Shown: positions 1,001 to 56,611, counted from the first letter of the stretch. The stretch: DNA of 64,000 bases from Candidatus Omnitrophota bacterium (GCA_023247725.1 JAHFFW010000003.1:64704-128703); one strand, 5' to 3'. Notes: generated from the letters alone by a model not told the origin. A program made the numbers and translations.

Positions 1001-2734
1001 ATGGCACATTTGAAACTGGGAGAAATCCTCGTCCAGCAAGGGGTCATTACGGGAGAGCAATTAACCCAGGCCATCGCCGCCCAAAAACAAACCAAAGGCC
1101 GCATCGGTGAACTCCTGGTCAAACAAGGGATCGTCTCTGAAGAAGATATTGTCGTTGCTCTTGCGACCCAATTCTTGCTCCCGTATTCTTCCAAAAAGAA
1201 TGACCTTCTCAAACCCCAGGCAGGACAAGGCCTCGAAAAAATCATACCTAAAGAATTTGCGGAAAAAAATGCGGTCCTGCCTTTATCCGTCAGTGATAAT
1301 CTCCTAACCGTAGCCGTTCATGATCCGCTGGATTTGATGCTCATTGACAATCTTAAAAGGATCTCGGGCTGTGAAGTGAATCTGGTCCTTGCGACCAAGT
1401 CCGAAATCAACCAGGCCATGCAGAGTTTTTATGGAATCATTCGTGCCAGCGGCGGAGCCTTATTAGGGCAAGCGGTGCAAAACACTTATGAAGCGGAAAC
1501 AACCTCAACCACCTTGAGTGCCGAAACGGAAACCTCCGGTTCCGAGGCCCAACTCAGTCTTGACAAGCTCATCGCTAAGGCCGAGGAAGCCCCGGTCATT
1601 AAATTGGTCGATTTGATTATCCGTCAGGCCATTGATGAACGAGCGAGCGACATCCACATTGAACCTTTCAAAGATAAAATCCGTTTGCGCTACCGCATCG
1701 ATGGATCGCTCTATGAAATTCCACCTCCGGCGAGGCATTTGCATTTGCCCATCGTTTCCCGCATCAAAATTCTTTCCAAATTGGATATTGCCGAAAAAAG
1801 ACTCCCGCAGGACGGCGCCATTGCGGCCAAATTGGAAAACCGGACCGTTGACCTGAGAGTCTCCACAGTTCCGACCGTCTGGGGAGAAAAGGCGGTCATG
1901 AGAATCTTGGATAAAGAGGCGGTGCCGCTGGAACTGAGCCGGTTAGGTTTTGATACCAAACAACTGGAGATCTTGCGCAAGGCGCTGCATAGCCCTTACG
2001 GGCTTTTCTTCGTGACTGGTCCGACGGGCAGCGGCAAATCCACCACCCTTTACTCGGCGCTCAATGAAACCATTGATCCCAAAAAGAATGTCATGACGGT
2101 CGAAGATCCGGTCGAATTTAAAATCGAAGGGATCAATCAGGTGGGAATAAAATCAGACATCGGATTAACCTTTGCCTCAGCCTTGCGGGCCTTTTTGCGC
2201 CAAGATCCGGATGTGATTATGGTTGGAGAAGTCCGGGATCTGGAAACCGCCCAAATCTGCGTTCGGGCCGCTCTCACGGGACACTTTGTTTTAAGTACAT
2301 TACACACCAATGATGCGTCCTCCGCAGTCACGCGCCTTATGGATATCGGCATTGAATCATACCTGTTGACGCCGTCCTTAATCCTGGTTTTGGCCCAGCG
2401 CCTCGCCCGCCGACTTTGCCAAAAATGCAAAGAGCCCTATGAACCGACTCTGGAAAATTCCGGAGGCATCAAATTTCATACGGATCTCATTTACCGCCCC
2501 AAAGGTTGCCACGAATGCAACCACACCGGCTACCGTGGCCGTTTGGTGATTGGAGAAGTTTTGCCCATCAATGACAGTATCCGCAATCTGATCGCCCAAA
2601 AAGCTCCCTACACGCAGATTCGTGATGCGGCCAGGAAAAATGGGATGAATACGCTTTTTGAAAGCGGCCTCAAAAGAGTCGAAGACGGTTTAACCAGCCT
2701 AGAGGAAATCCTCAATACAACGGCCTTGATGTAA
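1001..2734 (+). CDS. Type II secretion / type IV pilus assembly ATPase (GspE/PilB family)
   Basis: 577 aa. N-terminal T2SS-E N domain, Walker A motif GPTGSGKSTT, Asp/His boxes, and the tetracysteine motif CQKC...CHEC characteristic of GspE/PilB. Confidence 0.93.
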   Translation: MAHLKLGEILVQQGVITGEQLTQAIAAQKQTKGRIGELLVKQGIVSEEDIVVALATQFLLPYSSKKNDLLKPQAGQGLEKIIPKEFAEKNAVLPLSVSDNLLTVAVHDPLDLMLIDNLKRISGCEVNLVLATKSEINQAMQSFYGIIRASGGALLGQAVQNTYEAETTSTTLSAETETSGSEAQLSLDKLIAKAEEAPVIKLVDLIIRQAIDERASDIHIEPFKDKIRLRYRIDGSLYEIPPPARHLHLPIVSRIKILSKLDIAEKRLPQDGAIAAKLENRTVDLRVSTVPTVWGEKAVMRILDKEAVPLELSRLGFDTKQLEILRKALHSPYGLFFVTGPTGSGKSTTLYSALNETIDPKKNVMTVEDPVEFKIEGINQVGIKSDIGLTFASALRAFLRQDPDVIMVGEVRDLETAQICVRAALTGHFVLSTLHTNDASSAVTRLMDIGIESYLLTPSLILVLAQRLARRLCQKCKEPYEPTLENSGGIKFHTDLIYRPKGCHECNHTGYRGRLVIGEVLPINDSIRNLIAQKAPYTQIRDAARKNGMNTLFESGLKRVEDGLTSLEEILNTTALM

Positions 2735-6833: not shown

Positions 6834-7463
6834 ATGAAAATTGGCATCCGTATTACACAAAAAAAGGCTCTGACGCTCGTGGAATTGATGATTTCCACGA
6901 TGCTGGTTGGGCTCATCATGCTCGGCGTTGCCTCGATTGATTACGCGACCAAACAGTCCCAGCAAACGACCACTCGGCGCAGCTTGGTGGCCATGCAGGC
7001 CGGGGCCATCCTCATGGACATGGCCAAGAATGCGTCCGTGGCGACAGGGACGTCCACGAATATTGGGATTAATTCCTCGCATATGGGAGCGGCGCCATGG
7101 AATGGCCCGACTGACTTGTGTGTCCGCCGGGATATCGATGCCACGGGGGCCTCCAATAATACGCCCTGGGATTTTGCCGATGATCGATGGGTCTGTTACA
7201 CGATTGCCAGCAGTCAAATGCAGCGATGTATTGTGGCCGCACCCGCGGCTTGTCCTTTGGGCAGTGGCCAAATGATTGCTCCTATCCAGGCTCTCAATGT
7301 TACGATTACGGCGGATAATACGTTAGGGGTAGGGGATTTTAATATTCTCATCACCGTGACGACGCGCTTTACCCCTGGAGCCGCGGTTGACCCCCTGAAT
7401 AATCCCGAGACCTCGGTCAGTACTCGAGTACTTCCATCCTTCCATAGTTGGATAGGTTCATAG
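6834..7463 (+). CDS. Pseudopilin-like protein (GspJ/PilW-like)
   Basis: MKIGIRITQKKALTLVELMISTMLVGLIMLGVA has an N-terminal methylation-type helix (ALTLVE variant). 210 aa, last gene of the pseudopilin run. Confidence 0.65.
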   Translation: MKIGIRITQKKALTLVELMISTMLVGLIMLGVASIDYATKQSQQTTTRRSLVAMQAGAILMDMAKNASVATGTSTNIGINSSHMGAAPWNGPTDLCVRRDIDATGASNNTPWDFADDRWVCYTIASSQMQRCIVAAPAACPLGSGQMIAPIQALNVTITADNTLGVGDFNILITVTTRFTPGAAVDPLNNPETSVSTRVLPSFHSWIGS

Positions 7464-7569
7464 GATTTAACTTTTCAGAATTGAAGATTTTGGTGGGAGA
7501 GCAGCCCCAAATTTCCTTTTAGAGAATCTATGGTATCGAGTGTTGCGCCGGTCTTTTTCTATTTAAATC

Positions 7570-7642
7570 GGGTCGGTAGCTCAGTTGGGAGAGCGTCTGC
7601 TCCGCAAGCAGAAGGCCGGGGGTTCGACTCCCCCCCGATCCA
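7570..7642 (+). tRNA. tRNA-Ala (anticodon CGC)
   Basis: Cloverleaf folded by hand: acceptor GGGTCGG/CCGATCC with the G3:U70 Ala identity pair, D-arm GCTC-AGTTGGGA-GAGC, anticodon stem TCTGC/GCAGA with loop TCCGCAA, T-arm GGGGG-TTCGACT-CCCCC, discriminator A. CCA is not encoded. Position 33 is C rather than the usual U. Confidence 0.8.
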
Positions 7643-7662
7643 TTAATTTCAAATTTCATCCT

Positions 7663-8406
7663 GTGCATCGCTTTTATAGCCCATCGATTCTTTCTGTGGG
7701 GACAACGATTGAAATCCTCGATCCCGCCGAGTTTCATCATCTGAAAAATGTTCTGCGGTTAAAGCTTCATGCGCCGGTAACGATTTTTGATGGGAAAGGC
7801 CAAGAAGCCTTCGGCATCATTGCGGCCATCAAGAAATCTTCCGCAACGGTACAGCTGCAAAAAGTGAAAAAATCGGAAGAAACAAAGCCCCGCCTCATTT
7901 TAGCCTGTGCCATTCCCAAAAATGCCAAATTCGAATTCATTATCGAAAAATGTACCGAATTAGGCATTGATGAACTGATCCCCATGCAAACCAGCCGCAC
8001 GATTGTGCGATTTTCGACTCAACAAAAAGAAAAAAAATTCCTCCGCTATCAAACCGTGGCCCTCAATGCGGCGAAACAATGCGTACGCTCGATGATCCCT
8101 CGCATTCATCCGGTGACTTCGTTCACGCAAGTTTTAAGACAACGCTCGCCCAATGGCCTCGGTCTTATTCCCATTCTGTTCGGAAATCGTCAACTGCTTC
8201 TGCCCGCGCTGCAACAAGCCATCAGCGCCCCTCAAATCATATTTCTGATCGGACCCGAGGGGGATTTTACAAAAGAAGAGGGGGCGGCCGCCGGCGCAGC
8301 GGGCTTCTCACCCGTATCATTAGGTCCAACGACATTAAAGGTGGACACAGCCGCCATTTCGGTCGTGGCGGCGGCTCATTTCGTTTTTGACGCGCACTCC
8401 CCTTGA
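7663..8406 (+). CDS. rsmE: 16S rRNA (uracil1498-N3)-methyltransferase RsmE
   Basis: HRFY N-terminal motif, PUA-like N domain, SPOUT-type C domain with LIGPEGDFT. The annotated ORF start at 7585 overlaps the tRNA, so the in-frame GTG at 7663 was chosen. Confidence 0.8.
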   Translation: MHRFYSPSILSVGTTIEILDPAEFHHLKNVLRLKLHAPVTIFDGKGQEAFGIIAAIKKSSATVQLQKVKKSEETKPRLILACAIPKNAKFEFIIEKCTELGIDELIPMQTSRTIVRFSTQQKEKKFLRYQTVALNAAKQCVRSMIPRIHPVTSFTQVLRQRSPNGLGLIPILFGNRQLLLPALQQAISAPQIIFLIGPEGDFTKEEGAAAGAAGFSPVSLGPTTLKVDTAAISVVAAAHFVFDAHSP

Positions 8407-10211
8407 TGAAAAATCTTTCTAAAACATTCTTTAGCCAGAACCGTCGTGCGGTCGAATTTTTTTTGCTCGCCCTCGGATTGCGCCTGGCCTACTGGCTGAT
8501 TCTCAAATCCTTTTATCTTTTTTATGACTCGCCCAGCGGTGATGCCCTGTATTATCAAAGCTGGGCCCAAGACATTCTCGCCGGTGGCAGACCCGGCGTT
8601 TTTTTTGGTTTGCCTTTATATGCTTATTTTTTAGCGGTCCTCAAGATATTAACGCTCAATAACGGATTTTGGATCCGGCTTTTGCATCTTGTTCTAGGAT
8701 CGGCCAATTGCGTCTTAGTGTATTATCTAGCCCGTCGGGTCTTTAATGAACGCGCTGCAGCCTTAACCGCCATCCTTGTCGCGATCAACTTTAGTCTCAT
8801 CCATTACGACTGGTTGATGATGCCGGTCACCGTCTTAATCAGCCTGTCGCTCATGATCCTCTTATTTTTGGAACGACAGGAATTTGAAAAAAATAAAAGG
8901 CAGTGGTTTTTTTTAGGAATTTTGGTCGGGATCGCCGCACTGGGCGATGGCAAGTTCCTTTTTTTTGCCTTTTTCCTCAGCCTTTATTACTGGAGCAGAT
9001 TTCCTGCCGAGCGTTTTGTTAACTTAAGGTTTATCCTTATTCCCTTTTTATGCGGAATGTGCCTCATCTTGGCTGCGGTTGGCCTGCGCAATCGTCTCGT
9101 GGGTGGAGATTGGGTTTTGATCAGCGCCCAAAGTGGATTGAGTTTTTATATTGGGAATAATCCGGCATCGACAGGAGTTTTTGAGAATCCGGATTTCATC
9201 CGGCCGACGCATGAAGGCCAGGACCTAGACCAAGTCCTGATGGCGCAAAAAGCCTTGAACCGGACCCTCAAACCCAGCGAGGTTTCTTCATTTTATCGTC
9301 GTCAGGGATGGGAATTCATCTGGCAAAATCCTCGCGCTTTTTTCGATCTCTTGCGGAAAAAATTTTTGGCCTTCTGGTGTGAGCATGAAGGCGCCTATGA
9401 CCTGGATCTCTTATTTCAAAGGAGGGCTAAAAATTTTCTGGATTTCAATCCCTATTTTTGCATCGTTCCCCTTGCACTTTTGGGTATCGTTTTCTCGATC
9501 CGAAAGAATTTCCGGACGAGGTTTTCCTTTTTTTTAATTCTGAGTCAGCTGGCGATGACACTGGTTTTCTTCCTAACCCATCGCCACCGGACAACGATCC
9601 TGCCTTTGTTGATCATGTTTGAATCCTGGGGCATCTTTTGGATCTGGGGCAAGATCAAAGAGAAGAACTATTCGCTTCTGGCCTTCGTTGGTGTTTGTCT
9701 ATTGATTCTTTTCGTCAGTTTTCGACCGGTCAGCTTGGATAAAAATTCTATGGACTTCCTCTGGCTTTCGAAGGCGGGAGCCCTTCAAGAAAAGAAAGGG
9801 CGGTTGGATGAAGCCAAGGCCGATTACGTAAAGGCACTTCAAATCAATCCCCATGATCCCAACATCCTCTGTAATCTGGCGAATGTCTTTTTTCAACAAA
9901 AGAATTACAACGAGGCTATTCGTAACTATAAAAAAGCCCTGCAGATCCTGCCCTTTCACTTGGATGCCCTTTATAATCTAGCCTTCACTTACGAGCGTAT
10001 CCAGGATTTTTCCTCTGCCATGGCCTATTTTTATCAGGTCATCACCCTTGATCCGTCGAGTTATGACGCGCATTTCCATCTCGGTCAACTCCATCTAGCC
10101 CAAGGCCAATGCGAGAACGCCCTCTATCACTTCCACGAAACCCTTCGCTTGAAACCTATCCTGAAAAAAGAAATTGAACCCTTACTAAGCTCCTGCCTCA
10201 ATAATCCTTAA
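8403..10211 (+). CDS. Membrane glycosyltransferase of the ArnT/PMT (family 39-like) type fused to C-terminal TPR repeats
   Basis: About 12 predicted TM helices with a periplasmic-loop SGDALYY motif. The C-terminal ~150 aa carry at least four TPR units (ALQINPHD..., NYNEAIRNYKKALQILP..., ...). Confidence 0.6.
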   Translation: MMKNLSKTFFSQNRRAVEFFLLALGLRLAYWLILKSFYLFYDSPSGDALYYQSWAQDILAGGRPGVFFGLPLYAYFLAVLKILTLNNGFWIRLLHLVLGSANCVLVYYLARRVFNERAAALTAILVAINFSLIHYDWLMMPVTVLISLSLMILLFLERQEFEKNKRQWFFLGILVGIAALGDGKFLFFAFFLSLYYWSRFPAERFVNLRFILIPFLCGMCLILAAVGLRNRLVGGDWVLISAQSGLSFYIGNNPASTGVFENPDFIRPTHEGQDLDQVLMAQKALNRTLKPSEVSSFYRRQGWEFIWQNPRAFFDLLRKKFLAFWCEHEGAYDLDLLFQRRAKNFLDFNPYFCIVPLALLGIVFSIRKNFRTRFSFFLILSQLAMTLVFFLTHRHRTTILPLLIMFESWGIFWIWGKIKEKNYSLLAFVGVCLLILFVSFRPVSLDKNSMDFLWLSKAGALQEKKGRLDEAKADYVKALQINPHDPNILCNLANVFFQQKNYNEAIRNYKKALQILPFHLDALYNLAFTYERIQDFSSAMAYFYQVITLDPSSYDAHFHLGQLHLAQGQCENALYHFHETLRLKPILKKEIEPLLSSCLNNP

Positions 10212-10302
10212 CTAGAATATTTACTAAAATATTTTTCTAAAGATTCCAGCGGCACTTATTTTCTAAAACAAGCGGGCGAATGACACAAACCGGCCGAATG
10301 GA

Positions 10303-10331
10303 TTGACAACCATGGCCTTCTCTTTTATAAT
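10303..10331 (+). promoter_or_regulatory. Consensus sigma70 promoter for recA (TTGACA-N17-TATAAT)
   Basis: TTGACA at 10303-10308 and TATAAT at 10326-10331 with an exact 17-nt spacer; RBS AAAGGAGA precedes ATG 10371. Confidence 0.6.
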
Positions 10332-10370
10332 AGCCCTCTCCCATGACAACCGTGAAAGGAGAATGAAACC

Positions 10371-11417
10371 ATGGTAGAATCCAAAAAGTTGGCCGAGAAA
10401 GAAAAAACCCTTCCCGAAACGAGTGTTAGCAATAATAAACAAAAGGCCCTGGAACTGGCCCTGTCCCAGATTGAAAAACAATTTGGCAAGGGTTCCATCA
10501 TGAAACTCGACGGGGCAACGCATCTGGATGTCCCGGCGATTCCGACTGGTTCGCTCAGTCTGGATGCTGCCTTAGGGATCGGCGGTTTCCCGCGCGGACG
10601 AATCGTCGAGGTTTATGGTCAGGAATCTTCGGGAAAGACCACTCTGACGTTAAGCGTGATTAGCCAAGTGCAAAAACAGGGAGGGGTGGCGGCCTTTATT
10701 GATGCCGAACATGCCTTTGATTCCAACTATGCGAAAAGAGTCGGCGTCAAATTGGAAGACCTTTTGATTTCACAGCCCGATACCGGCGAGCAGGCGTTGG
10801 AAATTACCGAAACCCTGGTGCGTTCCAATGCCGTCGATCTGATCGTGGTGGATTCCGTCGCCGCCCTGACTCCCCGGGCCGAAATCGAGGGGGAGATGGG
10901 CGATGCTCACATGGGTCTTCAAGCCCGGCTTATGTCGCAAGCCTTGCGCAAATTGACCGGAGCCATCAGCAAATCCAAAACCTGTGTGGTCTTCATCAAC
11001 CAAATCCGGATGAGGATCGGCGTCATGTTTGGCAATCCCGAAACGACGACGGGCGGACGCGCTTTGAAATTCTACGCCTCGGCCCGCATTGAATTGCGAA
11101 AAATCGAATCGCTCAAAGTCGGTGAAGAGATCGTCGGCAACCGGGTCCGGGCGAAGGTAGTCAAAAACAAAGTGGCGCCGCCATTCAAAGACGCCGAATT
11201 TGAAATCCTCTTCAGCGAAGGAATTTCCCGGATCAGCGACATTCTGGATTTAGGATCCCAGACCGAGGTCATCGCCAAAAGCGGTTCTTGGCTTTCGTTT
11301 GAAAATGAAAAGATTGGACAAGGCCGGGAAAGCGCCCGCAAATTTCTGCAGGAAAACCCCAAAACCCTTTCCCGGATCGAAAAACAAATCCTGGATAAAT
11401 TGAATATCAAACGCTGA
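10371..11417 (+). CDS. recA: Recombinase RecA
   Basis: [24 protein letters not shown], Walker [13 protein letters not shown], and the L1/L2 loops are conserved. 348 aa. Confidence 0.97.
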
Positions 11418-11446
11418 CGTTCCATCATTAGCGTTAAAAGGACCAT

Positions 11447-12934
11447 ATGAAACCGAAGTTCCAGCCTCGATCGCTGATCGGCCGGATCACGGTCGTTGCC
11501 TTGCTTGCGTTGTGCCTCTCCCGCCAACTGTTAGCGGCAGCTCCTAAGACGGAGACCAAAACACTCAACCCGCAGGATTTTACCAATGCCGTAGTGAATG
11601 TGGCTGCCTCCGTCGGGCCTGCCGTCGTTTCCATTCAAGCGGAAAAAGTCGAACGGGTTCAGCCGTACTCGCCATTTTCTGGCAGTCCCTTTGAAGACGA
11701 AATGCTCAACCGTTTCTTCTCGGACTTTTTTGGCGAGCCACCGATGCGCGAATTGCACCGTTCTTCGCTGGGCTCGGGCGTCATTATCGATGAAAAAGGT
11801 TATATCCTCACCAATGATCATGTGGTGCGTGACACCGACAAGATCACGGTGACGTTAGCCGATGGACGGGAATTTGTCGGGACGGTCAAGGGAACCGATC
11901 CCCGCTCGGATTTGGCCGTCGTCAAAATTGATGCGCCGGATTTGCCGTATGTTCACCTCGGAGATTCGGATGCCCTGCAGATCGGGCAGTGGGTGGTTGC
12001 CATTGGCTATCCTTTTGGTTTTCTTTTGCCCAACACCGAACCCGCCGTGACCGCCGGAGTCATTAGCGCCTTGCATCGTTCGCTTCCCCGAACCGAGCGC
12101 CGCGATACCGACTACACGGATTTGATTCAAACCGACGCGGCGATTAATCCAGGCAATTCCGGCGGGCCGCTGGTGAATTTGAATGGAGAAATCATTGGGA
12201 TCAATGTCGCGATCTTCTCCACCTCGGGAGGATATCAGGGAATTGGTTTTACAATTCCCTCCAATGCGGCCCGACGCATCGTTGCGCGATTGATTGAAGG
12301 TAAATCCGTGGATTACGGCTGGATCGGCGTGAGCGTTCAGGACATTGACAGCCGGCTGGCAGAATATTTTAATCTCCCCAACGCCGAGGGAGTTCTGGTC
12401 AATAAAATTTTGGAAGGGGGCCCAGCGAGCCGCGCCGGCATTAAGGAAGGCGATATCATTATAACCTTTAACGGCAAGCCAACCAAAAATACAGTGACCC
12501 TCATCAAAATGATCGGCAATACCCCGGTTGATGAACAGGTCAAGATGAAGATCTGGCGGGATAAGAAATCTCAGGAGGTCGACGTCAAAATTGCCAAGCG
12601 TCCGGCCTTCGATGCGCAAGGACAGATCATCCTTCCGGACAATGAACAATCCGACCAAAATAAAGCCACCATCCATTGGCGAGGCCTGACCGTGCGGGAT
12701 ATTCCCGCCTCGATCAAAAACCGAATCCTTTCTCCCAACGTCGATGGGGTCATTGTGACCGACGTGGAAAACAAATCTCCCGCGCAGCTGGCCGGTTTAA
12801 AAAAAGGCGATGTCATCATCAGTGTGAATCAACGGCCAATCAGTAATTTGAAAGAATTGGATGCCGTTTTATCCAAGGCCAAAGGTGATTGTTTACTCCG
12901 GACGGTTCGCGGGTTCTTTGTCGTCAAAGAATAA
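11447..12934 (+). CDS. htrA: Periplasmic serine endoprotease DegP/HtrA with two PDZ domains
   Basis: Signal peptide; catalytic triad contexts ILTNDHVV, DLAVVKI, GNSGGPLVN; two PDZ domains. Confidence 0.93.
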   Translation: MKPKFQPRSLIGRITVVALLALCLSRQLLAAAPKTETKTLNPQDFTNAVVNVAASVGPAVVSIQAEKVERVQPYSPFSGSPFEDEMLNRFFSDFFGEPPMRELHRSSLGSGVIIDEKGYILTNDHVVRDTDKITVTLADGREFVGTVKGTDPRSDLAVVKIDAPDLPYVHLGDSDALQIGQWVVAIGYPFGFLLPNTEPAVTAGVISALHRSLPRTERRDTDYTDLIQTDAAINPGNSGGPLVNLNGEIIGINVAIFSTSGGYQGIGFTIPSNAARRIVARLIEGKSVDYGWIGVSVQDIDSRLAEYFNLPNAEGVLVNKILEGGPASRAGIKEGDIIITFNGKPTKNTVTLIKMIGNTPVDEQVKMKIWRDKKSQEVDVKIAKRPAFDAQGQIILPDNEQSDQNKATIHWRGLTVRDIPASIKNRILSPNVDGVIVTDVENKSPAQLAGLKKGDVIISVNQRPISNLKELDAVLSKAKGDCLLRTVRGFFVVKE

Positions 12935-12939
12935 GTACC

Positions 12940-13413
12940 ATGCCTAAGGGTCAAGCGGATACTCCGGATTTGCAAAAAGCCAAATCCTTTGCCTTCCGGC
13001 TTTTGAAAATACGCCAGCGCAGCGAACGTGAACTCATTGATCGACTGCAACGAAAAAAGATTCCTCAGGAAACCATCGACAGAACCCTGCAGTACCTGCG
13101 GAACTATCAATTCGTTGGTGATAGAGAATTTACGAAATGGTGGGTCCGCTCCCGCCTGAATAAACCCTTTGGCTTAAAACGCATCCGCGAGGAATTGAAA
13201 GATAAAGGAATCGCCGAAGAACTCATCCGCAGCGAATTGTCTTGTATCCAGCCGGAGCTCGATGAATCGCAGATGATCGGGCATTTGTTGGCGAAGCGTC
13301 TGAATCGTTATCGTGGACTTGACCCGATCAAACGCAAACGGCGGATTTTTGAATTTTTATGCCGGCGAGGGTTTTCCTTAGAGGCGGTTGAGCAAGCCAT
13401 CAAAAATTTATGA
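12940..13413 (+). CDS. recX: RecA regulator RecX
   Basis: AFRLLKIRQRSERELIDRLQRKKIPQETIDRTLQYLRNYQFVGDREF is the three-repeat RecX fold. Start set at the internal ATG 12940 just after the htrA stop. Confidence 0.85.
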   Translation: MPKGQADTPDLQKAKSFAFRLLKIRQRSERELIDRLQRKKIPQETIDRTLQYLRNYQFVGDREFTKWWVRSRLNKPFGLKRIREELKDKGIAEELIRSELSCIQPELDESQMIGHLLAKRLNRYRGLDPIKRKRRIFEFLCRRGFSLEAVEQAIKNL

Positions 13414-51138: not shown

Positions 51139-51304
51139 CCCTAATTTCAATCTTGTGGATAATAAAAACACCGGAGGATGTTGTCGGGAAAAAATTCGGG
51201 CACTCTTTCCCGACGAGAAATGACGGTTTGACAACAAAAGAGGGCCGTGTTATACTTCCAGCGTAATAAATCCCGTTCTTTTGTTCGTCAATGTTCTGAA
51301 GTGA

Positions 51305-51390
51305 TAAAGGCAAACCCGGGGAAACCCGGCGACGCAAAACTACAGGGCCTAAACCCTCGTTTATCGAGGCAAAGGTAGCCAGTTGCCAAA
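51305..51390 (+). ncRNA. Candidate cyclic-di-GMP-I (GEMM) riboswitch aptamer
   Basis: Read directly: GGCAAACC-[CCGGG-GAAA-CCCGG]-CGACGCAAAAC-TACA-GGGCCTAAACC-[CTCG-TTTAT-CGAG]-GCAAAGGTAGCC-AGTTGCC. This gives a GNRA-capped P2, an ACGCAAA(A/G)C linker, a GGCCUAAACC P3 segment and a P1 pairing GGCAA/TTGCC, matching GEMM-I hallmarks as I recall them. Confidence 0.6.
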
Positions 51391-51428
51391 ACAGAGAATA
51401 TTCAACCCGTCTTTATTTAACCTTCTAT

Positions 51429-51478
51429 GCCTATTCTTTGGTGTTTTGCGTGTGCCCGAGAATAGGGTTTTTATTTTC
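51429..51478 (+). terminator. Intrinsic terminator forming the riboswitch expression platform
   Basis: 8-bp stem CCTATTCT/AGAATAGG at 51430-51437 / 51459-51466, followed by GTTTTTATTTT. It lies 58 nt upstream of the RBS GGAAAGGAG and ATG 51536. Confidence 0.5.
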
Positions 51479-51535
51479 TGGTCAGATCATGTCCGTATGC
51501 TACTTTGGGTAACACAAGAGGGAAAGGAGTCAGGA

Positions 51536-53827
51536 ATGTCAGCTAATGAGTTAAGCAAAAGAGTTTTGCCCCTCGGTCTTATGTTTTTGTTCATGATGCC
51601 CTTGGCCTTACAGGCGTCGACATATTATGTCCGTCCGGATGGTGGCTCGGCAAGCCAGTGCACGGGGTTAAGCGATGCCCCTTATCCTGGTTCTGGCAAT
51701 AACCAAGCCTGTGCTTTTAATCATCCCTATTGGGCGCTGGCACCGCTGGGAAACAATCCGACTAAATTCGTCGGAGGAGACACACTGATCATTGATGGTT
51801 CTAATGGCGCCCAGTATATGATGGGATATGGAGCCCCGAATTCTGGCGACACCTCCATCTGTTATGCCAACTGGCCCTGGGATTGTTTCATGCGGCCGAT
51901 TCCTTCCGGACCCCGTCCCGACCAGCCGACGCGAATTCTGGGCAAGGGTTGGAATAACGGTTGCGCCAATCCGCCGCAATTGTGGGGCAATGAACGACCC
52001 AACACCATCATCAACTTAAATGGAAGCAGTAATGTCGAGGTGCAGTGTCTGGAAGTGACCGATCATTCCTCCTGCCAACTGGGAGGCCCAAGTCCTTGTA
52101 ATCGGGACAATCCTCCTTTCGGGCCTTGGGCGGTCACTGGCATTTCCGCATCCGATAGTTCGAATGTCTTACTAAAGAATCTCAATATCCATGGCTTGTA
52201 CCGCGGCCTTCACGCCGGCCGCTTGAAGGACTGGACTTTGGAAGACGTGAAGATTGTCGCGAATTCATTCGTTGGTTGGGATGGGGATATCGGCGCGTAC
52301 AATTCTTCCAATTCCGGGACGTTGAGTTTCAACCGGGTTAAAATCCTTTATAACGGTTGCGGGGAAACTTATCCGGATCGAAAGCCCTATAATTGTTACA
52401 GCCAGGACCAAGGCGGATATGGGGACGGATTGGGTACGCACCAGACCGGCGGCTACTGGATTTTTAATAATGTGGACTTCAGCCATAATGTTTCCGACGG
52501 ATTGGACCTTTTGTATCACAACGGCAATGGATCTATCACCATCAAGCGTTCTCGATTTGAAGGCAATGCCGGTAATCAGGTGAAGGTCAATGCCAATACC
52601 CTGATCGAAAATTCCTTGCTCGTAGGAAATTGTGGATACTTTAAAACGCAACCCTTCACCTATAATCCCAGCACGTTCAATAATTGTCGTGCTGCTGGCA
52701 GCACATTGGCTGCAGGGTTCGCAGCTGGCCGAACCATTGAAATCCGTAATTCGACGATCACGAGCAACGGCGATGTCGTGATCATGTCCTCCGGCGATGG
52801 TTGTAATGGAACCGAGGTCTTAAGGTCCAGGAATAATATCTTTTTGGGAGGAACGGAGTTTAATGACGGCTACGATCTTTCCGCTCTCTATTATGCGTCT
52901 GGCCGAACCGGTAATGGCGACGGGACTTGCGGCTCCGTGCCGTTTGATGACGATTATTCCGTGATTTGGAATACGAAGGGGAATAGCGCGGTCTGTTCCG
53001 GAAAACCTCATTCAAAATGTCTAGATCCGAAGCTCATCGGGCCGATTGTTCAATATTTCACTGGCGATACGTACAATCTTAATCTTTTATCGGATAGTCC
53101 AGCGAAAGATATTGCCTTGGTCATTGCGGGAATGTCGAGCCTTGATTACAACAGTTTTGATCGCGGATCGGTTTGGGATTCGGGTGCGTTCGAGTATGGA
53201 TCCGTTCCATCCGTGCCATCAGGAGGCGGGTCGAATCTGCTGCCGGTTTGTGGCAATGGAAAATTGGAGAGTCCTGAGCAATGCGATGACGGTAATCTCA
53301 ATAATGGTGACGGCTGCAATAACCTCTGTGTCAAAGAAATCGCTCTGACCCCGGTCTGCGGTAATGGGAAACTGGAAGGAACCGAGCAGTGCGATGATGG
53401 GAACCTCAATAATGGAGATGGCTGCAGCAGCGTTTGCGTTAAGGAAGCGCCAGTCTCGGTTTGCGGAAACGGAAAATTGGAAAGCGGCGAGCAATGCGAT
53501 GACGGTAATCTCGTTTCCGAGGATGGATGCAGCGCCAGCTGCCAAAAGGAACCTCCTCGGACGCCGGTCTGTGGTAACCGTGTCGTTGAACCCGGTGAAA
53601 CGTGTGATGATGGCAATACCATCGATGAAGATGGATGCAGCAGTCGTTGCCAAATCGAACCTCCCACAACCAAATTTGTTTGCGGTAACGGGAAAAGAGA
53701 GGGTTCGGAACAATGCGATGATGGGAATTTGAGAGATGGCGATGGGTGCAGCCACAGTTGCACAATTGAATATAAGTCTCCTCCTAGAAAACAACCGGTC
53801 ATAAAAAAGCGAGTCATTCGAAGGTAA
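51536..53827 (+). CDS. Secreted right-handed beta-helix (pectate-lyase-fold) protein with five C-terminal cysteine-rich repeats (CGNGxxExxEQCDDGNxxxGDGCSxxC)
   Basis: Signal peptide MSANELSKRVLPLGLMFLFMMPLALQAS. Parallel beta-helix sequence features (NVEVQCLEVTD, NVLLKNLNIHG, repeated N/G-rich rungs). Five ~35-aa Cys-rich repeats of the Myxococcus-type disulfide repeat. No PEP-CTERM motif. Confidence 0.7.
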   Translation: MSANELSKRVLPLGLMFLFMMPLALQASTYYVRPDGGSASQCTGLSDAPYPGSGNNQACAFNHPYWALAPLGNNPTKFVGGDTLIIDGSNGAQYMMGYGAPNSGDTSICYANWPWDCFMRPIPSGPRPDQPTRILGKGWNNGCANPPQLWGNERPNTIINLNGSSNVEVQCLEVTDHSSCQLGGPSPCNRDNPPFGPWAVTGISASDSSNVLLKNLNIHGLYRGLHAGRLKDWTLEDVKIVANSFVGWDGDIGAYNSSNSGTLSFNRVKILYNGCGETYPDRKPYNCYSQDQGGYGDGLGTHQTGGYWIFNNVDFSHNVSDGLDLLYHNGNGSITIKRSRFEGNAGNQVKVNANTLIENSLLVGNCGYFKTQPFTYNPSTFNNCRAAGSTLAAGFAAGRTIEIRNSTITSNGDVVIMSSGDGCNGTEVLRSRNNIFLGGTEFNDGYDLSALYYASGRTGNGDGTCGSVPFDDDYSVIWNTKGNSAVCSGKPHSKCLDPKLIGPIVQYFTGDTYNLNLLSDSPAKDIALVIAGMSSLDYNSFDRGSVWDSGAFEYGSVPSVPSGGGSNLLPVCGNGKLESPEQCDDGNLNNGDGCNNLCVKEIALTPVCGNGKLEGTEQCDDGNLNNGDGCSSVCVKEAPVSVCGNGKLESGEQCDDGNLVSEDGCSASCQKEPPRTPVCGNRVVEPGETCDDGNTIDEDGCSSRCQIEPPTTKFVCGNGKREGSEQCDDGNLRDGDGCSHSCTIEYKSPPRKQPVIKKRVIRR
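53243..53770 (+). repeat. Five tandem ~105-bp coding repeats (the Cys-rich modules of the 51536 gene)
   Basis: Direct DNA repeats ccggt(t/c)tg(t/c)gg(c/t)aatgg(a/g)aaa(t/c)tggaa... repeated five times. They also create spurious long antisense ORFs. Confidence 0.8.
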
Positions 53828-53928
53828 GAATGACGAAAGATGCCGGGAAGGGCCCCCAGACCTTTCCCGGCGTCAACCCTTGAATCAAATCCCTAGACCT
53901 TTTTGACCAAAATCAATCGAATTATGGC

Positions 53929-53957
53929 TTGACAAGCTCTTCCAGCCTGCTAATAAT
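53929..53957 (+). promoter_or_regulatory. Sigma70-like promoter (TTGACA-N16-TAATAAT) in front of the second pseudopilin operon
   Basis: TTGACA at 53929-53934 and TAATAAT at 53951-53957; about 60 nt upstream of ATG 54018. Confidence 0.4.
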
Positions 53958-54017: not shown

Positions 54018-54404
54018 ATGAAGAGAATGAAAACCGCCAAGGGTCTCACGCTGGTTGAGTTGCTCATTGCCGTGTTTCTGCTTTCTGTCGGTATCGCCAG
54101 CACCCTCATGTTTTTTTCGAATGCCATGCTCTCGGCGGATTTTGCCGGGGACATCAGCGTCGCTTCGACCCATGCCGAACATGTTCTTGAAGAGATGAAG
54201 TCTCGTCGGAGCCTAGAAGAGATCCAGGGCACCAATTGGCAAGAATGGGCCTTGCAACAGGATTTCAATATGCTGCCGAATGAAAGGGTGGAGGTCAACT
54301 TCGGCAATATTGAAGGTGCCCTTATGGATGTTACAGCCCAAATCCATTGGATCAAACGGGCCCGCGATAATCAGGTTTCTTTTATGACGACCTTATCCCG
54401 ATGA
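54018..54404 (+). CDS. Prepilin-type protein (PilV/GspI-like minor pilin)
   Basis: MKRMKTAKGLTLVELLIAVFLLSVGIAS; possibly starts at ATG 54027. Confidence 0.75.
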   Translation: MKRMKTAKGLTLVELLIAVFLLSVGIASTLMFFSNAMLSADFAGDISVASTHAEHVLEEMKSRRSLEEIQGTNWQEWALQQDFNMLPNERVEVNFGNIEGALMDVTAQIHWIKRARDNQVSFMTTLSR

Positions 54405-54883
54405 AGATACAAAAGCGGAAGGCTTTCACCTTACTGGAAATTTTGGTGACGGTCGCCCTGTTCACCTTTTTGGTGGCAGCGGTCTATCAGGCTTTTTTGG
54501 TAGGAAATCGATCCTGGACTAGTTATAACTACAGGGTCTCCATGCAAAGAGAATTGCGCTGGACCCTTTATGCATTGGTCAAGGATCTGCGAGAAGCCAA
54601 GGAAATTTTGGTGACTCAAGATGATACGAAGAGCGTTTTGAGCTTTAATAAACCAGGATCTGGCATCATCATTTACACCTGGTTCAAAGCGGGTGATCGG
54701 GCACAGCATTTGCTCCGGCAAGAAGAATCCAAAGAACGAACGATTGCCCAGCATGTTTCAAATCTGGAATTTATTCAGCCTTCCACCAAAGAAATTTTCG
54801 TTGATATCACGGTCACAGAGAGACCATTATTCGCCGCGCCATTGAGCTTGAATTTGAAACAAAAAGTCAAGGTCCGAATATAA
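54401..54883 (+). CDS. Prepilin-type protein (PilW/GspJ-like minor pilin)
   Basis: MKIQKRKAFTLLEILVTVALFTFLVAAVYQAFL. Confidence 0.75.
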   Translation: MKIQKRKAFTLLEILVTVALFTFLVAAVYQAFLVGNRSWTSYNYRVSMQRELRWTLYALVKDLREAKEILVTQDDTKSVLSFNKPGSGIIIYTWFKAGDRAQHLLRQEESKERTIAQHVSNLEFIQPSTKEIFVDITVTERPLFAAPLSLNLKQKVKVRI

Positions 54884-54897
54884 ATTTATAAAAGTCC

Positions 54898-56037
54898 ATG
54901 GGCCACAGAATTTCAAACAATAGGGGAGCTGCCCTCATCCTGGCCTATATTGTCATGGCTGCTTTAGTGACTCTTTCCGCCGGGTTTGCCCTTTCCACAT
55001 TCAATGAACTCAACGATGCCCGTCGATACCGGGATTCGTTGGCTGCCTTTTGGCTGGCGGAATCGGCCCTGGCGTCTTTTCTGCAAAATACCTCCATGCT
55101 GGATAAATCCGGAGCCATGAATATGACTTACCCTCAGGGCAGCGTGGTTTTACAAAAAGATGATTCTTATCCCACGAAAAGGTTGGTCACCGCGACGGGC
55201 AACGTGGGTGGGACCAAACGCAGTTTGCAGTTGGAGTTTCCCGCGTTAGCGCCGGAGGTATTCAATAATACGGTTTCGGTCAAAGGGGATATTCTTATTT
55301 CTGGGAAAAAATCCAATCTTGCGTTTAACGACAAAACCCGGATCAGCGGCCAGGTCGCCAAGAGCTCGCAGTTTTCTACGGTTAATTTTGAAGACCTCAA
55401 AGAAAAAACCGATTCGCATCTGGTTTCCATGCTGTATCCCGACGCAAATAATAATGGAGTCGTGGACGAATTTGAGGATTTTGTTCAGGTGAATCGAAAT
55501 TTGGTCACGACCTACCCGAAGGAGGAAGTCATTTATGTCAAGGGCAACGATACTTATACGGTTGTTCCCAGCAGTGCCTTGAAGGGCAAAAAGATTATTT
55601 TCGTGGAAGGAAGCCGCAGCGGCAAAGGCAATGTGATCATTCAATATATGGATGGCTGGCAAGATGACGAAAATTTAACCATCATCGCGACCGGCAATGT
55701 CACCTTCAATCAGCTGGGGATGGGCCAAACCAATTCGCAGCTTAATGTCATTGCCTGGGGCGGTTATTCGGAAACTGCCGCTTTGCCGGGAACTCGTCGA
55801 GGCATGATCTATACGCATGGAATCGCGAGTTTTGATGCCATTGATGAAACCTCGATCACTTACGGCAGTGTCGTGGCCAATGAAGGCTTAAAAATCAAAG
55901 AAATCTGGTCATATAAATCCTTTTACTATGCGGATACTCGCATCAATGGAGTTGTGCCTCCAGGTTTTGAAGGTCTTATCGGTGGAAGACTTTCGAGTGG
56001 GTATGCCGTCAAACCTAATGCATGGCGGGAAATTTAG
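54898..56037 (+). CDS. PilX-N-domain minor pilin / large pseudopilin
   Basis: MGHRISNNRGAALILAYIVMAALVTLSAGFALSTFNELNDARRYRDSLAAFWLAESAL has the PilX N-terminal architecture; 379 aa. Confidence 0.65.
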   Translation: MGHRISNNRGAALILAYIVMAALVTLSAGFALSTFNELNDARRYRDSLAAFWLAESALASFLQNTSMLDKSGAMNMTYPQGSVVLQKDDSYPTKRLVTATGNVGGTKRSLQLEFPALAPEVFNNTVSVKGDILISGKKSNLAFNDKTRISGQVAKSSQFSTVNFEDLKEKTDSHLVSMLYPDANNNGVVDEFEDFVQVNRNLVTTYPKEEVIYVKGNDTYTVVPSSALKGKKIIFVEGSRSGKGNVIIQYMDGWQDDENLTIIATGNVTFNQLGMGQTNSQLNVIAWGGYSETAALPGTRRGMIYTHGIASFDAIDETSITYGSVVANEGLKIKEIWSYKSFYYADTRINGVVPPGFEGLIGGRLSSGYAVKPNAWREI

Positions 56038-56038
56038 A

Positions 56039-56611
56039 ATGAGCCACAGAATTTATCTTGTGATTGGAATTGGGATTACGATTTTTGTGATTTTTTCCGC
56101 AATCGTTAACCGTTCCATCAATAAAACTTTTCGCGGACCGGAGATTGCACAACCAAAGGCACAAAAAACATCACCATCACCACCGCCGGAAAAAAAGTCA
56201 AAGCTTCCCGAACCTTTGGTTGTGCCGCCAAAGTCGGTTGGCCGACATACCTTGGACCCCGATGATCCTGCGCGGTTCGGAATTCTTGTGCAAAAAGAAG
56301 GGCAGGTCAAAACCCAGTCTCAATGGGACATCGATATGGATCGGGTTTTGATCCGTTCCCAAGTCCCAATACAGAAAGCGCCGGCCTTTGCTCAAACCAA
56401 AGTAACCGCAAAGGAATTTCAAAAAAAAATGCAACTCGTCAATGAACGGATTACACAATGCGAACGCCTCGCGGCTAACGATCCCAGCAATGAAGAAGCT
56501 AGGCAAAAACTACAGACCTTTTACATGCTCAAGTCGACACTGGCCTCTTTGGAACATGCGATTGTTATCCCCGAATCCTCCAATTCCGGTTTAGAAAATT
56601 CGCCGAAGTGA
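56039..56611 (+). CDS. Membrane-anchored Pro-rich / coiled-coil protein; hypothetical (possible pilus-assembly accessory)
   Basis: TM YLVIGIGITIFVIFSAIV, a Pro-rich stretch KTSPSPPPEKKSKLPEPLVVPP, and a C-terminal helical region. Confidence 0.4.
   Translation: MSHRIYLVIGIGITIFVIFSAIVNRSINKTFRGPEIAQPKAQKTSPSPPPEKKSKLPEPLVVPPKSVGRHTLDPDDPARFGILVQKEGQVKTQSQWDIDMDRVLIRSQVPIQKAPAFAQTKVTAKEFQKKMQLVNERITQCERLAANDPSNEEARQKLQTFYMLKSTLASLEHAIVIPESSNSGLENSPK

Follow-up and report, generated by a model that had tools for sequence, protein, structure and literature searches.

Class I riboswitches for cyclic di-GMP (c-di-GMP), also known as GEMM-I, form a well-known RNA family with thousands of members. 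Here we describe an ordinary new member of this family in a 64,000-nucleotide (nt) stretch of DNA from a Candidatus Omnitrophota bacterium (GCA_023247725.1, JAHFFW010000003.1:64704-128703; hereafter the window, from whose first letter all positions are counted). The element lies on the plus strand at 51299-51390, in the 5′ leader of a gene for a secreted beta-helix protein (51536-53827) inside an exopolysaccharide (EPS) locus. It offers a concrete regulatory link, open to experimental test, of c-di-GMP to an exosortase-type EPS locus in Omnitrophota, of which no cultured model organism exists. A full-text literature search combining Omnitrophota and c-di-GMP gave no report of a riboswitch in that phylum. 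The novelty is modest: it is taxonomic and extends to a conserved leader family with insertion variants, but it is not conceptual, and the general significance is limited because the riboswitch class has long been known.

The c-di-GMP-I riboswitch Vc2 of Vibrio cholerae (structures 3IRW and 3MXH) belongs to RF01051. The window element resembles it in its three-helix aptamer, in GGCAAACC, the GAAA tetraloop, GACGCAAA and the receptor side CCUAAAC, and in the nucleotides G20, A47 and C92 (Vc2 numbering), whose roles in ligand recognition have been described (PMC5888326). According to the review PMC6366702, Vc2 acts without a terminator, whereas the window aptamer precedes a conserved intrinsic terminator. 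The host, an uncultured Omnitrophota bacterium, and the regulated gene are different as well.

In Clostridioides difficile, the gene for ZmpI is controlled by an OFF riboswitch of class I. Like the window leader, Cd1 and other class I switches of this species consist of an aptamer followed by a terminator and follow an OFF logic; for the functional ones, an increase of termination by c-di-GMP has been shown experimentally, and ZmpI is described as a secreted enzyme that releases adhesins (PMC6366702). C. difficile belongs to another phylum than the host of the window element, and its regulated genes concern flagella and a protease. The anti-terminator of the window is also different in that it would consist mostly of the ligand-binding core (the joining segment J2/3 and the 5′ strand of helix P3) and not of the 3′ strand of P1 alone, and its OFF direction is predicted from sequence and folds.

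The GEMM-Ib riboswitches of Geobacter, which respond to 3′3′-cyclic GMP-AMP (cGAMP), are ON switches. These switches, Gs1761 among them, share with the window element the fold, the family clan and a terminator-based expression platform, but they carry A20 where the window has G20; G at this position discriminates against cGAMP, while A gives cGAMP or dual binding (PMC6140456). Among the relatives of the window element, only L084, from a locus with the same gene order, carries A20. A further class of the same clan (CL00126) is RF03167 (c-di-GMP-I-GGC), in which some leaders homologous to ours score marginally better. Its hallmark is G47 (GACGCGAA), in contrast to A47 in the window (GACGCAAA) and in all aligned homologous leaders.

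The aptamer and its ligand-contact positions

All Rfam families were scanned at their gathering thresholds on both strands of the whole window. Two matches were obtained in total, a tRNA at 7570-7642 and RF01051 (c-di-GMP-I) at 51299-51390 (+). The latter match, which is far beyond chance, covered the model at full length (positions 1-87 of 87) with 72.2 bits, the gathering score being 35 and the whole-window E-value 3.3e-12, whereas RF01786 (c-di-GMP-II), included in the same scan, had no match at gathering. A first-pass annotation, made from the sequence alone, had proposed a candidate GEMM type I aptamer here from a series of motifs, and the family search clearly bore it out. The motifs themselves were all found in place: GGCAAACC (51309-51316), a GAAA-capped hairpin with the arms CCGGG/CCCGG, CGACGCAAAAC (51330-51340), GGGCCTAAACC (51345-51355), a second hairpin (51354-51369), GGTAGCC (51374-51380), and AGTTGCC (51381-51387).

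Alignment to the Rfam consensus showed canonical nucleotides at the ligand-contact positions, namely G20 at 51309, A47 at 51336, and C92 at 51386. G51309, the equivalent of G20 in Vc2, is the unpaired G ahead of GCAAACC. Since G20 discriminates against cGAMP, the combination of G20, A47, and C92 constitutes a canonical c-di-GMP signature. The CCGGG/CCCGG hairpin belongs to P2, which spans 51310-51335, with the tetraloop at 51321-24 and a base formed by G51310-C51311 and G51334-C51335. P3 spans 51338-51384; A51338-U51341 pairs with A51381-U51384 and G51345-C51349 with G51374-C51380, and the helix contains a CCUAAA/AAAGG receptor-like internal loop and the inner hairpin at 51354-51369.

The third helix, P1, pairs the 5′ flank of the aptamer (51294-51303) with its 3′ flank (51387-51400), both on the plus strand: UUCUG at 51294-98 pairs with CAGAG at 51392-96, and UG at 51302-03 with CA at 51387-88. 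The 3′ strand overlaps CAGAGAAUA (51392-51400), the helper strand of the putative anti-terminator described below. P1 was found at the same place with differing sequence in 16 of 16 aligned leaders, e.g. as CUGUU/AACAG, AGCUG/CAGCU, AUUUG/CAAAU, or AUCUGU/ACAGAU, and the RF03167 consensus also draws it at this position. The first-pass annotation had instead let AGTTGCC pair back to GGCAA. This pairing is not the family P1, because AGUU (51381-84) is the 3′ strand of P3, which it closes with AACU (51338-41), and because GC at 51310-11 pairs with GC at 51334-35. The same GGCAA/UUGCC helix was proposed by RNAalifold on the aptamer alignment; we rejected it for the Rfam and crystal-structure pairing because of the compensatory exchange of C22:G45 and U22:A45, the need for AGUU in P3, and the engagement of G20 and C92 in ligand contacts.

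The regulated protein has many homologues, and the leaders used for comparison come from loci that encode them and were collected from genome contigs, metagenome contigs, and exact look-ups. Promoter, aptamer, and terminator recur upstream of homologues with 55-71% identity in about 20 metagenomic and Omnitrophota loci, where Rfam or the signature motifs identify the aptamer. At 17 loci, Rfam scans placed an aptamer of the GEMM-I clan 110-490 nt ahead of the homologous gene and in the same orientation. Six more (L001, L019, L022, L037, L084, and L009) carry an aptamer that is split by large insertions and remains unscored at gathering. Homologues below about 55% identity had no aptamer at the loci examined, and three genome-contig loci had no Rfam match at gathering, among them L001 with its insertion-split aptamer. 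A regular expression for GCAAA...ACGCAAA overlooked all homologous aptamers, which carry GGUAAA/GACAC; the Rfam scans found them.

Covariation was evaluated on 16 uninterrupted aptamers with the Rfam-type structure and 500 shuffles. Standard pairs were formed in 99.3% of the cells, a count that, given the kinship of the leaders and the near-identity of several of them, exceeds the number of independent events. Seven pairs were changed on both sides. None of the 500 shuffles reached the observed pairing values, and pairing fell to 25-48% when the partners were shifted by 1-3 columns. One of the covarying pairs lies at the base of P2, with C22:G45 in the window and L085a and U22:A45 in the other 14. 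P2 and P3, and also P1 with its differing sequences, are thus supported in homologous leaders, as the first-pass annotation would have it for a true aptamer. The relatedness of the leaders weighs against this assignment, as does a C51315/C51330 mismatch in P2 of the window.

With its score, its covarying P2 and P3, the intact contacts, a P1, and a location in a 5′ leader with an expression platform, the element has the features of RF01051, while A20 of GEMM-Ib, G47 of RF03167, and a match to c-di-GMP-II are missing. We consider it almost certain from these sequence features that the leader contains a genuine c-di-GMP-I aptamer, and this aptamer would be expected to bind c-di-GMP. It is very improbable that it senses another cyclic dinucleotide (3′3′-cGAMP, as in GEMM-Ib) or the ligand of a variant class (c-di-GMP-I-GGC). 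Such a specificity could be suspected from syntenic L084 with A at position 20, and from five distinct leaders reported as RF03167 and not as RF01051 (L010, L011 with its identical copy L013, L024, L087, and L085b). The RF03167 calls were rejected as artefacts of marginal scores (59-63 bits against a gathering score of 59), because the RF03167 consensus has G47 and these loci have A47. For the window, the best match within the clan is RF01051, at 72 bits and with all three contacts, including the G20 that disfavours cGAMP.

Terminator, putative anti-terminator and predicted direction of the switch

The stretch from 51228 to 51535 is a complete cis-regulatory unit of the downstream gene, consisting of promoter, GEMM-I aptamer, and terminator. 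It begins upstream of the range 51305-51540 that had been annotated first. The promoter is of the sigma-70 type (TTGACA, a 17-nt spacer, and TATACT at 51228-51256 (+), 11 of 12 matches, with an extended -10 TG at 51248-49) and would start transcription near 51263. Of 19 homologous leaders, 16 have its pattern TTGAC-N17-TGnYAYACT 30-55 nt ahead of G20.

An intrinsic terminator hairpin follows at 51430-51466 (+), with a 5′ arm at 51430-51442, a loop at 51443-51453, and a 3′ arm at 51454-51466 (RNAfold, -14.2 kcal/mol), and with the U-tract UUUUUAUUUU at 51468-51478 (+). The first-pass annotation had named CCTATTCT (51430-51437), AGAATAGG (51459-51466), and GTTTTTATTTT (51467-51477), all of which were located, with the stem beginning 40 nt past the aptamer end. 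The presence of a canonical terminator thus stood, being conserved in 17 distinct leaders, but the stem had been drawn too short: it comprises 12 pairs and one U/C mismatch. A simple terminator scan overlooked the hairpin, as its loop is longer than 8 nt, and direct folding recovered it.

A hairpin followed by at least five U lies between aptamer and start codon in all 19 leaders (17 distinct sequences), and stem positions 1-9 are paired in 15-17 of the 17 distinct leaders. There is hardly any variation in the 5′ arm CCUAUUCUUUGUGU. Changes in the 3′ arm are mostly exchanges of A and G opposite U, and the loops and spacers vary freely. Such a combination of a near-constant 5′ arm and a drifting 3′ arm would be expected if the former has two partners to pair with.

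A second partner was indeed predicted. In the minimum free energy (MFE) structures of the full leader and of the leader cut before the 3′ arm, the region 51432-51456 (+) serves as the partner of an anti-terminator. A helper helix is formed by CAGAGAAUA (51392-400, the 3′ strand of P1) with UAUUCUUUG (51432-40), and further pairings join GU (51441-42) to AC (51342-43), GUUUUGCGU (51443-51) to ACGCAAAAC (51332-40), and UGCC (51453-56) to GGCA (51309-12). In the homologues, the 5′ arm of the terminator is complementary to the core ACACAAAG-CU-AUAGG, i.e. to J2/3 (with A47) and to the 5′ strand of P3. In folds of 11 distinct leaders up to the end of the 5′ arm, the arm CUUUGUGU paired with the core ACACAAAG in the MFE structure of 10, which opens the outer aptamer helices, and CCUAU additionally paired with AUAGG in 8. 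The window deviates from this scheme in that its core reads ACGCAAAAC and the matching GUUUUGCGU is carried by the terminator loop, both partners having been altered together. The duplex of the window core with its own terminator region amounts to -23.4 kcal/mol, compared with -9.2 for the arm of L004 and -7.8 for that of L014.

According to these folds and duplex energies, aptamer and terminator are compatible with each other, whereas aptamer and anti-terminator, as well as anti-terminator and terminator, are mutually exclusive. Ligand binding should therefore favour termination, which corresponds to an OFF switch. For the leader 51264-51467, the free MFE structure (-50.6 kcal/mol) keeps the anti-terminator, and a fold with the aptamer enforced (-41.6 kcal/mol) contains the terminator; the gap of 9 kcal/mol is of a size that ligand and tertiary contacts could supply. 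The MFE of the unconstrained whole leader had a z-score of 0 against shuffles, and global stability is uninformative.

In the proposed mechanism, the aptamer core (GGCA at 51309-12 and ACGCAAAAC.AC at 51332-43) and CAGAGAAUA (51392-400) would pair with 51432-56 as long as no ligand is present. The resulting anti-terminator would let RNA polymerase read through, and the secreted beta-helix protein would be made. Binding of c-di-GMP to G51309, A51336, and C51386 would lock P1, P2, and P3 and block the anti-terminator; the freed hairpin at 51430-51466 with its U-tract would then end transcription, so that high c-di-GMP would repress the gene. As judged from sequence and folding models, this mechanism, including the OFF direction, is likely to be correct, although the direction remains a prediction, since the review PMC6366702 cautions that switch direction is not transferable between species. 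The earlier proposal of a transcription-termination switch agrees with the conserved terminator and with a predicted anti-terminator that excludes both aptamer and terminator.

The opposite polarity, an ON switch in which c-di-GMP prevents termination and induces the beta-helix protein along with matrix production, appears unlikely to us. It would suit the intuitive association of high c-di-GMP with matrix that the first-pass annotation had implied, and class I ON switches exist, such as Bc2 in Bacillus thuringiensis (PMC6366702). The terminator of the window, however, lies clear of the aptamer, with its start 40 nt further downstream, and is present in the fold with the enforced aptamer. The sole strong alternative partner of its 5′ arm is the aptamer core, so that ligand binding would free the arm for the terminator, and the leader folds contained no ligand-dependent structure that competes with the terminator.

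Even less is to be said for a relic without regulation, or for an element that acts solely via translation or mRNA stability, a reading to which we assign a very low probability. Several homologous leaders have large insertions in the aptamer, and some c-di-GMP riboswitches of C. difficile are non-functional (PMC6366702). Aptamer, terminator, and their mutual complementarity are nevertheless kept with compensatory changes across proteins that are 55-71% identical, and the ligand contacts of the window are intact. The ribosome-binding site of the 51536 gene, AAGGAG at 51524-51529 (+), 6 nt ahead of the ATG, is not predicted to be sequestered in the leader fold.

Several points weigh against the OFF mechanism as a whole. 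In the homologues, the full-length MFE structure consists of aptamer plus terminator, so the anti-terminator would there act as a kinetic trap. Covariation of the anti-terminator rests on few independent variants (window, L085a, and L084), and the anti-terminator duplex of L084 and L085b did not outperform shuffles. Part of the helper helix 51392-400:51432-40 is made of sequence beyond the aptamer; with a weak P1, this helix could arise even in the presence of ligand. Nearest-neighbour folding ignores tertiary contacts and co-transcriptional kinetics, and ligand binding, termination, and direction alike are predictions drawn from the nucleotide sequence and from such folding.

The regulated protein and its locus

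The product of the regulated gene (51536-53827, +) comprises 763 amino acids (aa). It combines a signal peptide with a right-handed beta-helix domain of about 550 aa and with five Cys-rich DUF4215/TIGR02232 repeats, as seen from the translation and from profile matches (Pfam PF13948, 3e-35; TIGR02232, 1.4e-61). An AlphaFold model of the N-terminal domain (predicted local distance difference test score, pLDDT, 79; predicted template modelling score, pTM, 0.83) is a right-handed beta-helix. Signal peptide, fold model, repeats, and the neighbouring EpsH and EpsI genes agree with the first-pass description of a secreted beta-helix/Cys-repeat protein in an EPS locus.

As a sequence search of the Protein Data Bank (PDB) gave no match to the 763-aa protein, a fold search was used. 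The best PDB fold matches were GH136 lacto-N-biosidases, a PL9 pectate lyase, an alginate lyase, the epimerases AlgE4 and AlgG, and capsule depolymerases, and they also included the matrix lyase RbmB of V. cholerae. Based on these models, the gene most likely contributes to the exosortase-linked EPS locus a secreted enzyme that modifies or cleaves glycans and is made at low c-di-GMP. A matrix-trimming or matrix-degrading enzyme would fit repression at high c-di-GMP, the enzyme role being suggested by a weak fold match. The first-pass annotation had proposed a secreted matrix or adhesin-like protein and had left the direction of the switch open; OFF control suits a matrix-modifying or matrix-degrading enzyme better than an adhesin induced by c-di-GMP. 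The empty PDB sequence search speaks against an enzyme, as do the template modelling scores of the fold matches, which are only about 0.4 with the adhesin PfbA among them.

With the riboswitch unchanged, the protein could instead be an adhesin, a matrix component, or an EPS-biosynthetic modifier (epimerase) and not a depolymerase. We hold this for a serious, though less probable, possibility. The matches to PfbA and to AlgE4/AlgG point in this direction, the five Cys-rich DUF4215 repeats resemble binding or scaffold modules, and the gene has a conserved position inside a biosynthetic locus. The better matches are, on the other hand, mostly glycoside hydrolases and polysaccharide lyases (GH136, PL9, alginate lyase, capsule depolymerases, and RbmB), and repression by c-di-GMP makes more sense for an enzyme that cleaves the matrix. 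ZmpI of C. difficile provides a functional analogy to such a matrix-acting enzyme made at low c-di-GMP. For the glycan-cleaving enzyme, the predicted OFF direction suggests a role in matrix remodelling or dispersal rather than in building.

Upstream of the riboswitch, the locus contains genes for a Wzy/O-antigen-ligase-like protein, GT4 glycosyltransferases, a GH123-like protein, and a polysaccharide deacetylase, and further upstream chain-length and glycosyltransferase genes of the XrtA-system type. Downstream follow pseudopilin-like genes, a GT2, the exosortase EpsH, and EpsI. This gene order is shared by L084 (GCA_964464475.1), L085, and L086. A PilB/GspE/MshE-like ATPase encoded at 1001-2734 (+) has at its N terminus an MshEN domain for c-di-GMP binding (NF053729; 66 bits, cut-off 38) and is, by its sequence, a predicted second, protein-based c-di-GMP receptor in the window; c-di-GMP signalling is therefore plausible in this organism. 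Its RecA pointed to the phylum, as every best match that carried a name was Candidatus Omnitrophota (75-85% identity).

Between the beta-helix gene and the GT2 and exosortase genes, the region 54018-56611 (+) holds small genes with prepilin-type N-terminal methylation motifs (PilV/GspJ-like), four of them pseudopilin-like, as well as two proteins without a family match. This arrangement recurs in L084, L085, and L086; pseudopilins are unusual inside an exosortase EPS locus. The pseudopilin-like genes are possibly co-transcribed with the beta-helix gene. The 190-nt gap in front of them contains a strong GC-rich hairpin without U-tract, GCCGGGAAGG...CCTTTCCCGGC (53843-53871, +), right after the beta-helix gene, and a promoter-like TTGACA-17-AATAAT (53929-53957, +; 11 of 12 matches) ahead of the four genes; the corresponding gap in L086 measures only 79 nt. 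On the other side of the unit, past the stop codon of the deacetylase gene (51138) and ahead of the riboswitch promoter, GTCGGGAAA...TTTCCCGAC forms an inverted repeat at 51183-51214 (+). It has no U-tract on the plus strand and may mark the end of the upstream transcription unit.

Variation among the homologous leaders

With its common terminator and anti-terminator, the family of about 20 leaders is a natural data set for the co-evolution of expression platform and aptamer core. Within it, several variants were observed. Four leaders (L001:2236-2352, L019:1603-1720, L022:15-121, and L037:1299-1404) carry an insertion of 40-55 nt between GGGAC and ACAAAG, i.e. between C44 and A45 in Vc2 numbering. 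This insertion appears to form two hairpins, and the four leaders may represent a structured-insertion subclass of GEMM-I. In three others (L084:7700-7960, L027:1713-1900, and L009:1640-1890), a large GC-rich insertion is found in P3, directly after GCUAU/GCUAA. In addition, position 20 of the syntenic L084 is A and not G (ACTAGTAAACC); in GEMM-Ib, this exchange confers specificity for cGAMP or dual specificity.

L085 carries two complete aptamer-plus-terminator units in tandem before its gene (7293-7691). The first aptamer matches RF01051 (7293-7373), and the second occupies 7476-7559. Further downstream, at 7691-13380, lie two paralogous beta-helix genes in tandem, of which only the first is preceded by a leader. 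Such an arrangement may be the reason why some homologous loci are without a riboswitch.

Taken further, and only tentatively, these loci could form an Omnitrophota-wide regulon in which c-di-GMP turns off a secreted glycan-cleaving beta-helix enzyme within the exosortase EPS locus, possibly together with the pseudopilin-like genes. The aptamer core itself would be the anti-terminator strand, and the leaders would have diversified by insertions at C44/A45 and in P3 and by one A20 variant that maybe senses cGAMP. If true, this would amount to a riboswitch-run module for matrix remodelling or dispersal in a phylum of uncultured, partly host-dependent nanobacteria.

Finally, a palindromic repeat of about 75 nt (..AATGTTTCGTTTTGTAATGTCAAATAATTCAAAACGAAACAG..) is present in one or two copies between terminator and start codon at five loci, namely L004:1855-2000, L005:1660-1870, L007:1815-1915, L016:1800-1985, and L089:1400-1495. 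These repeats look like small mobile or repetitive extragenic palindromic (REP)-like elements.

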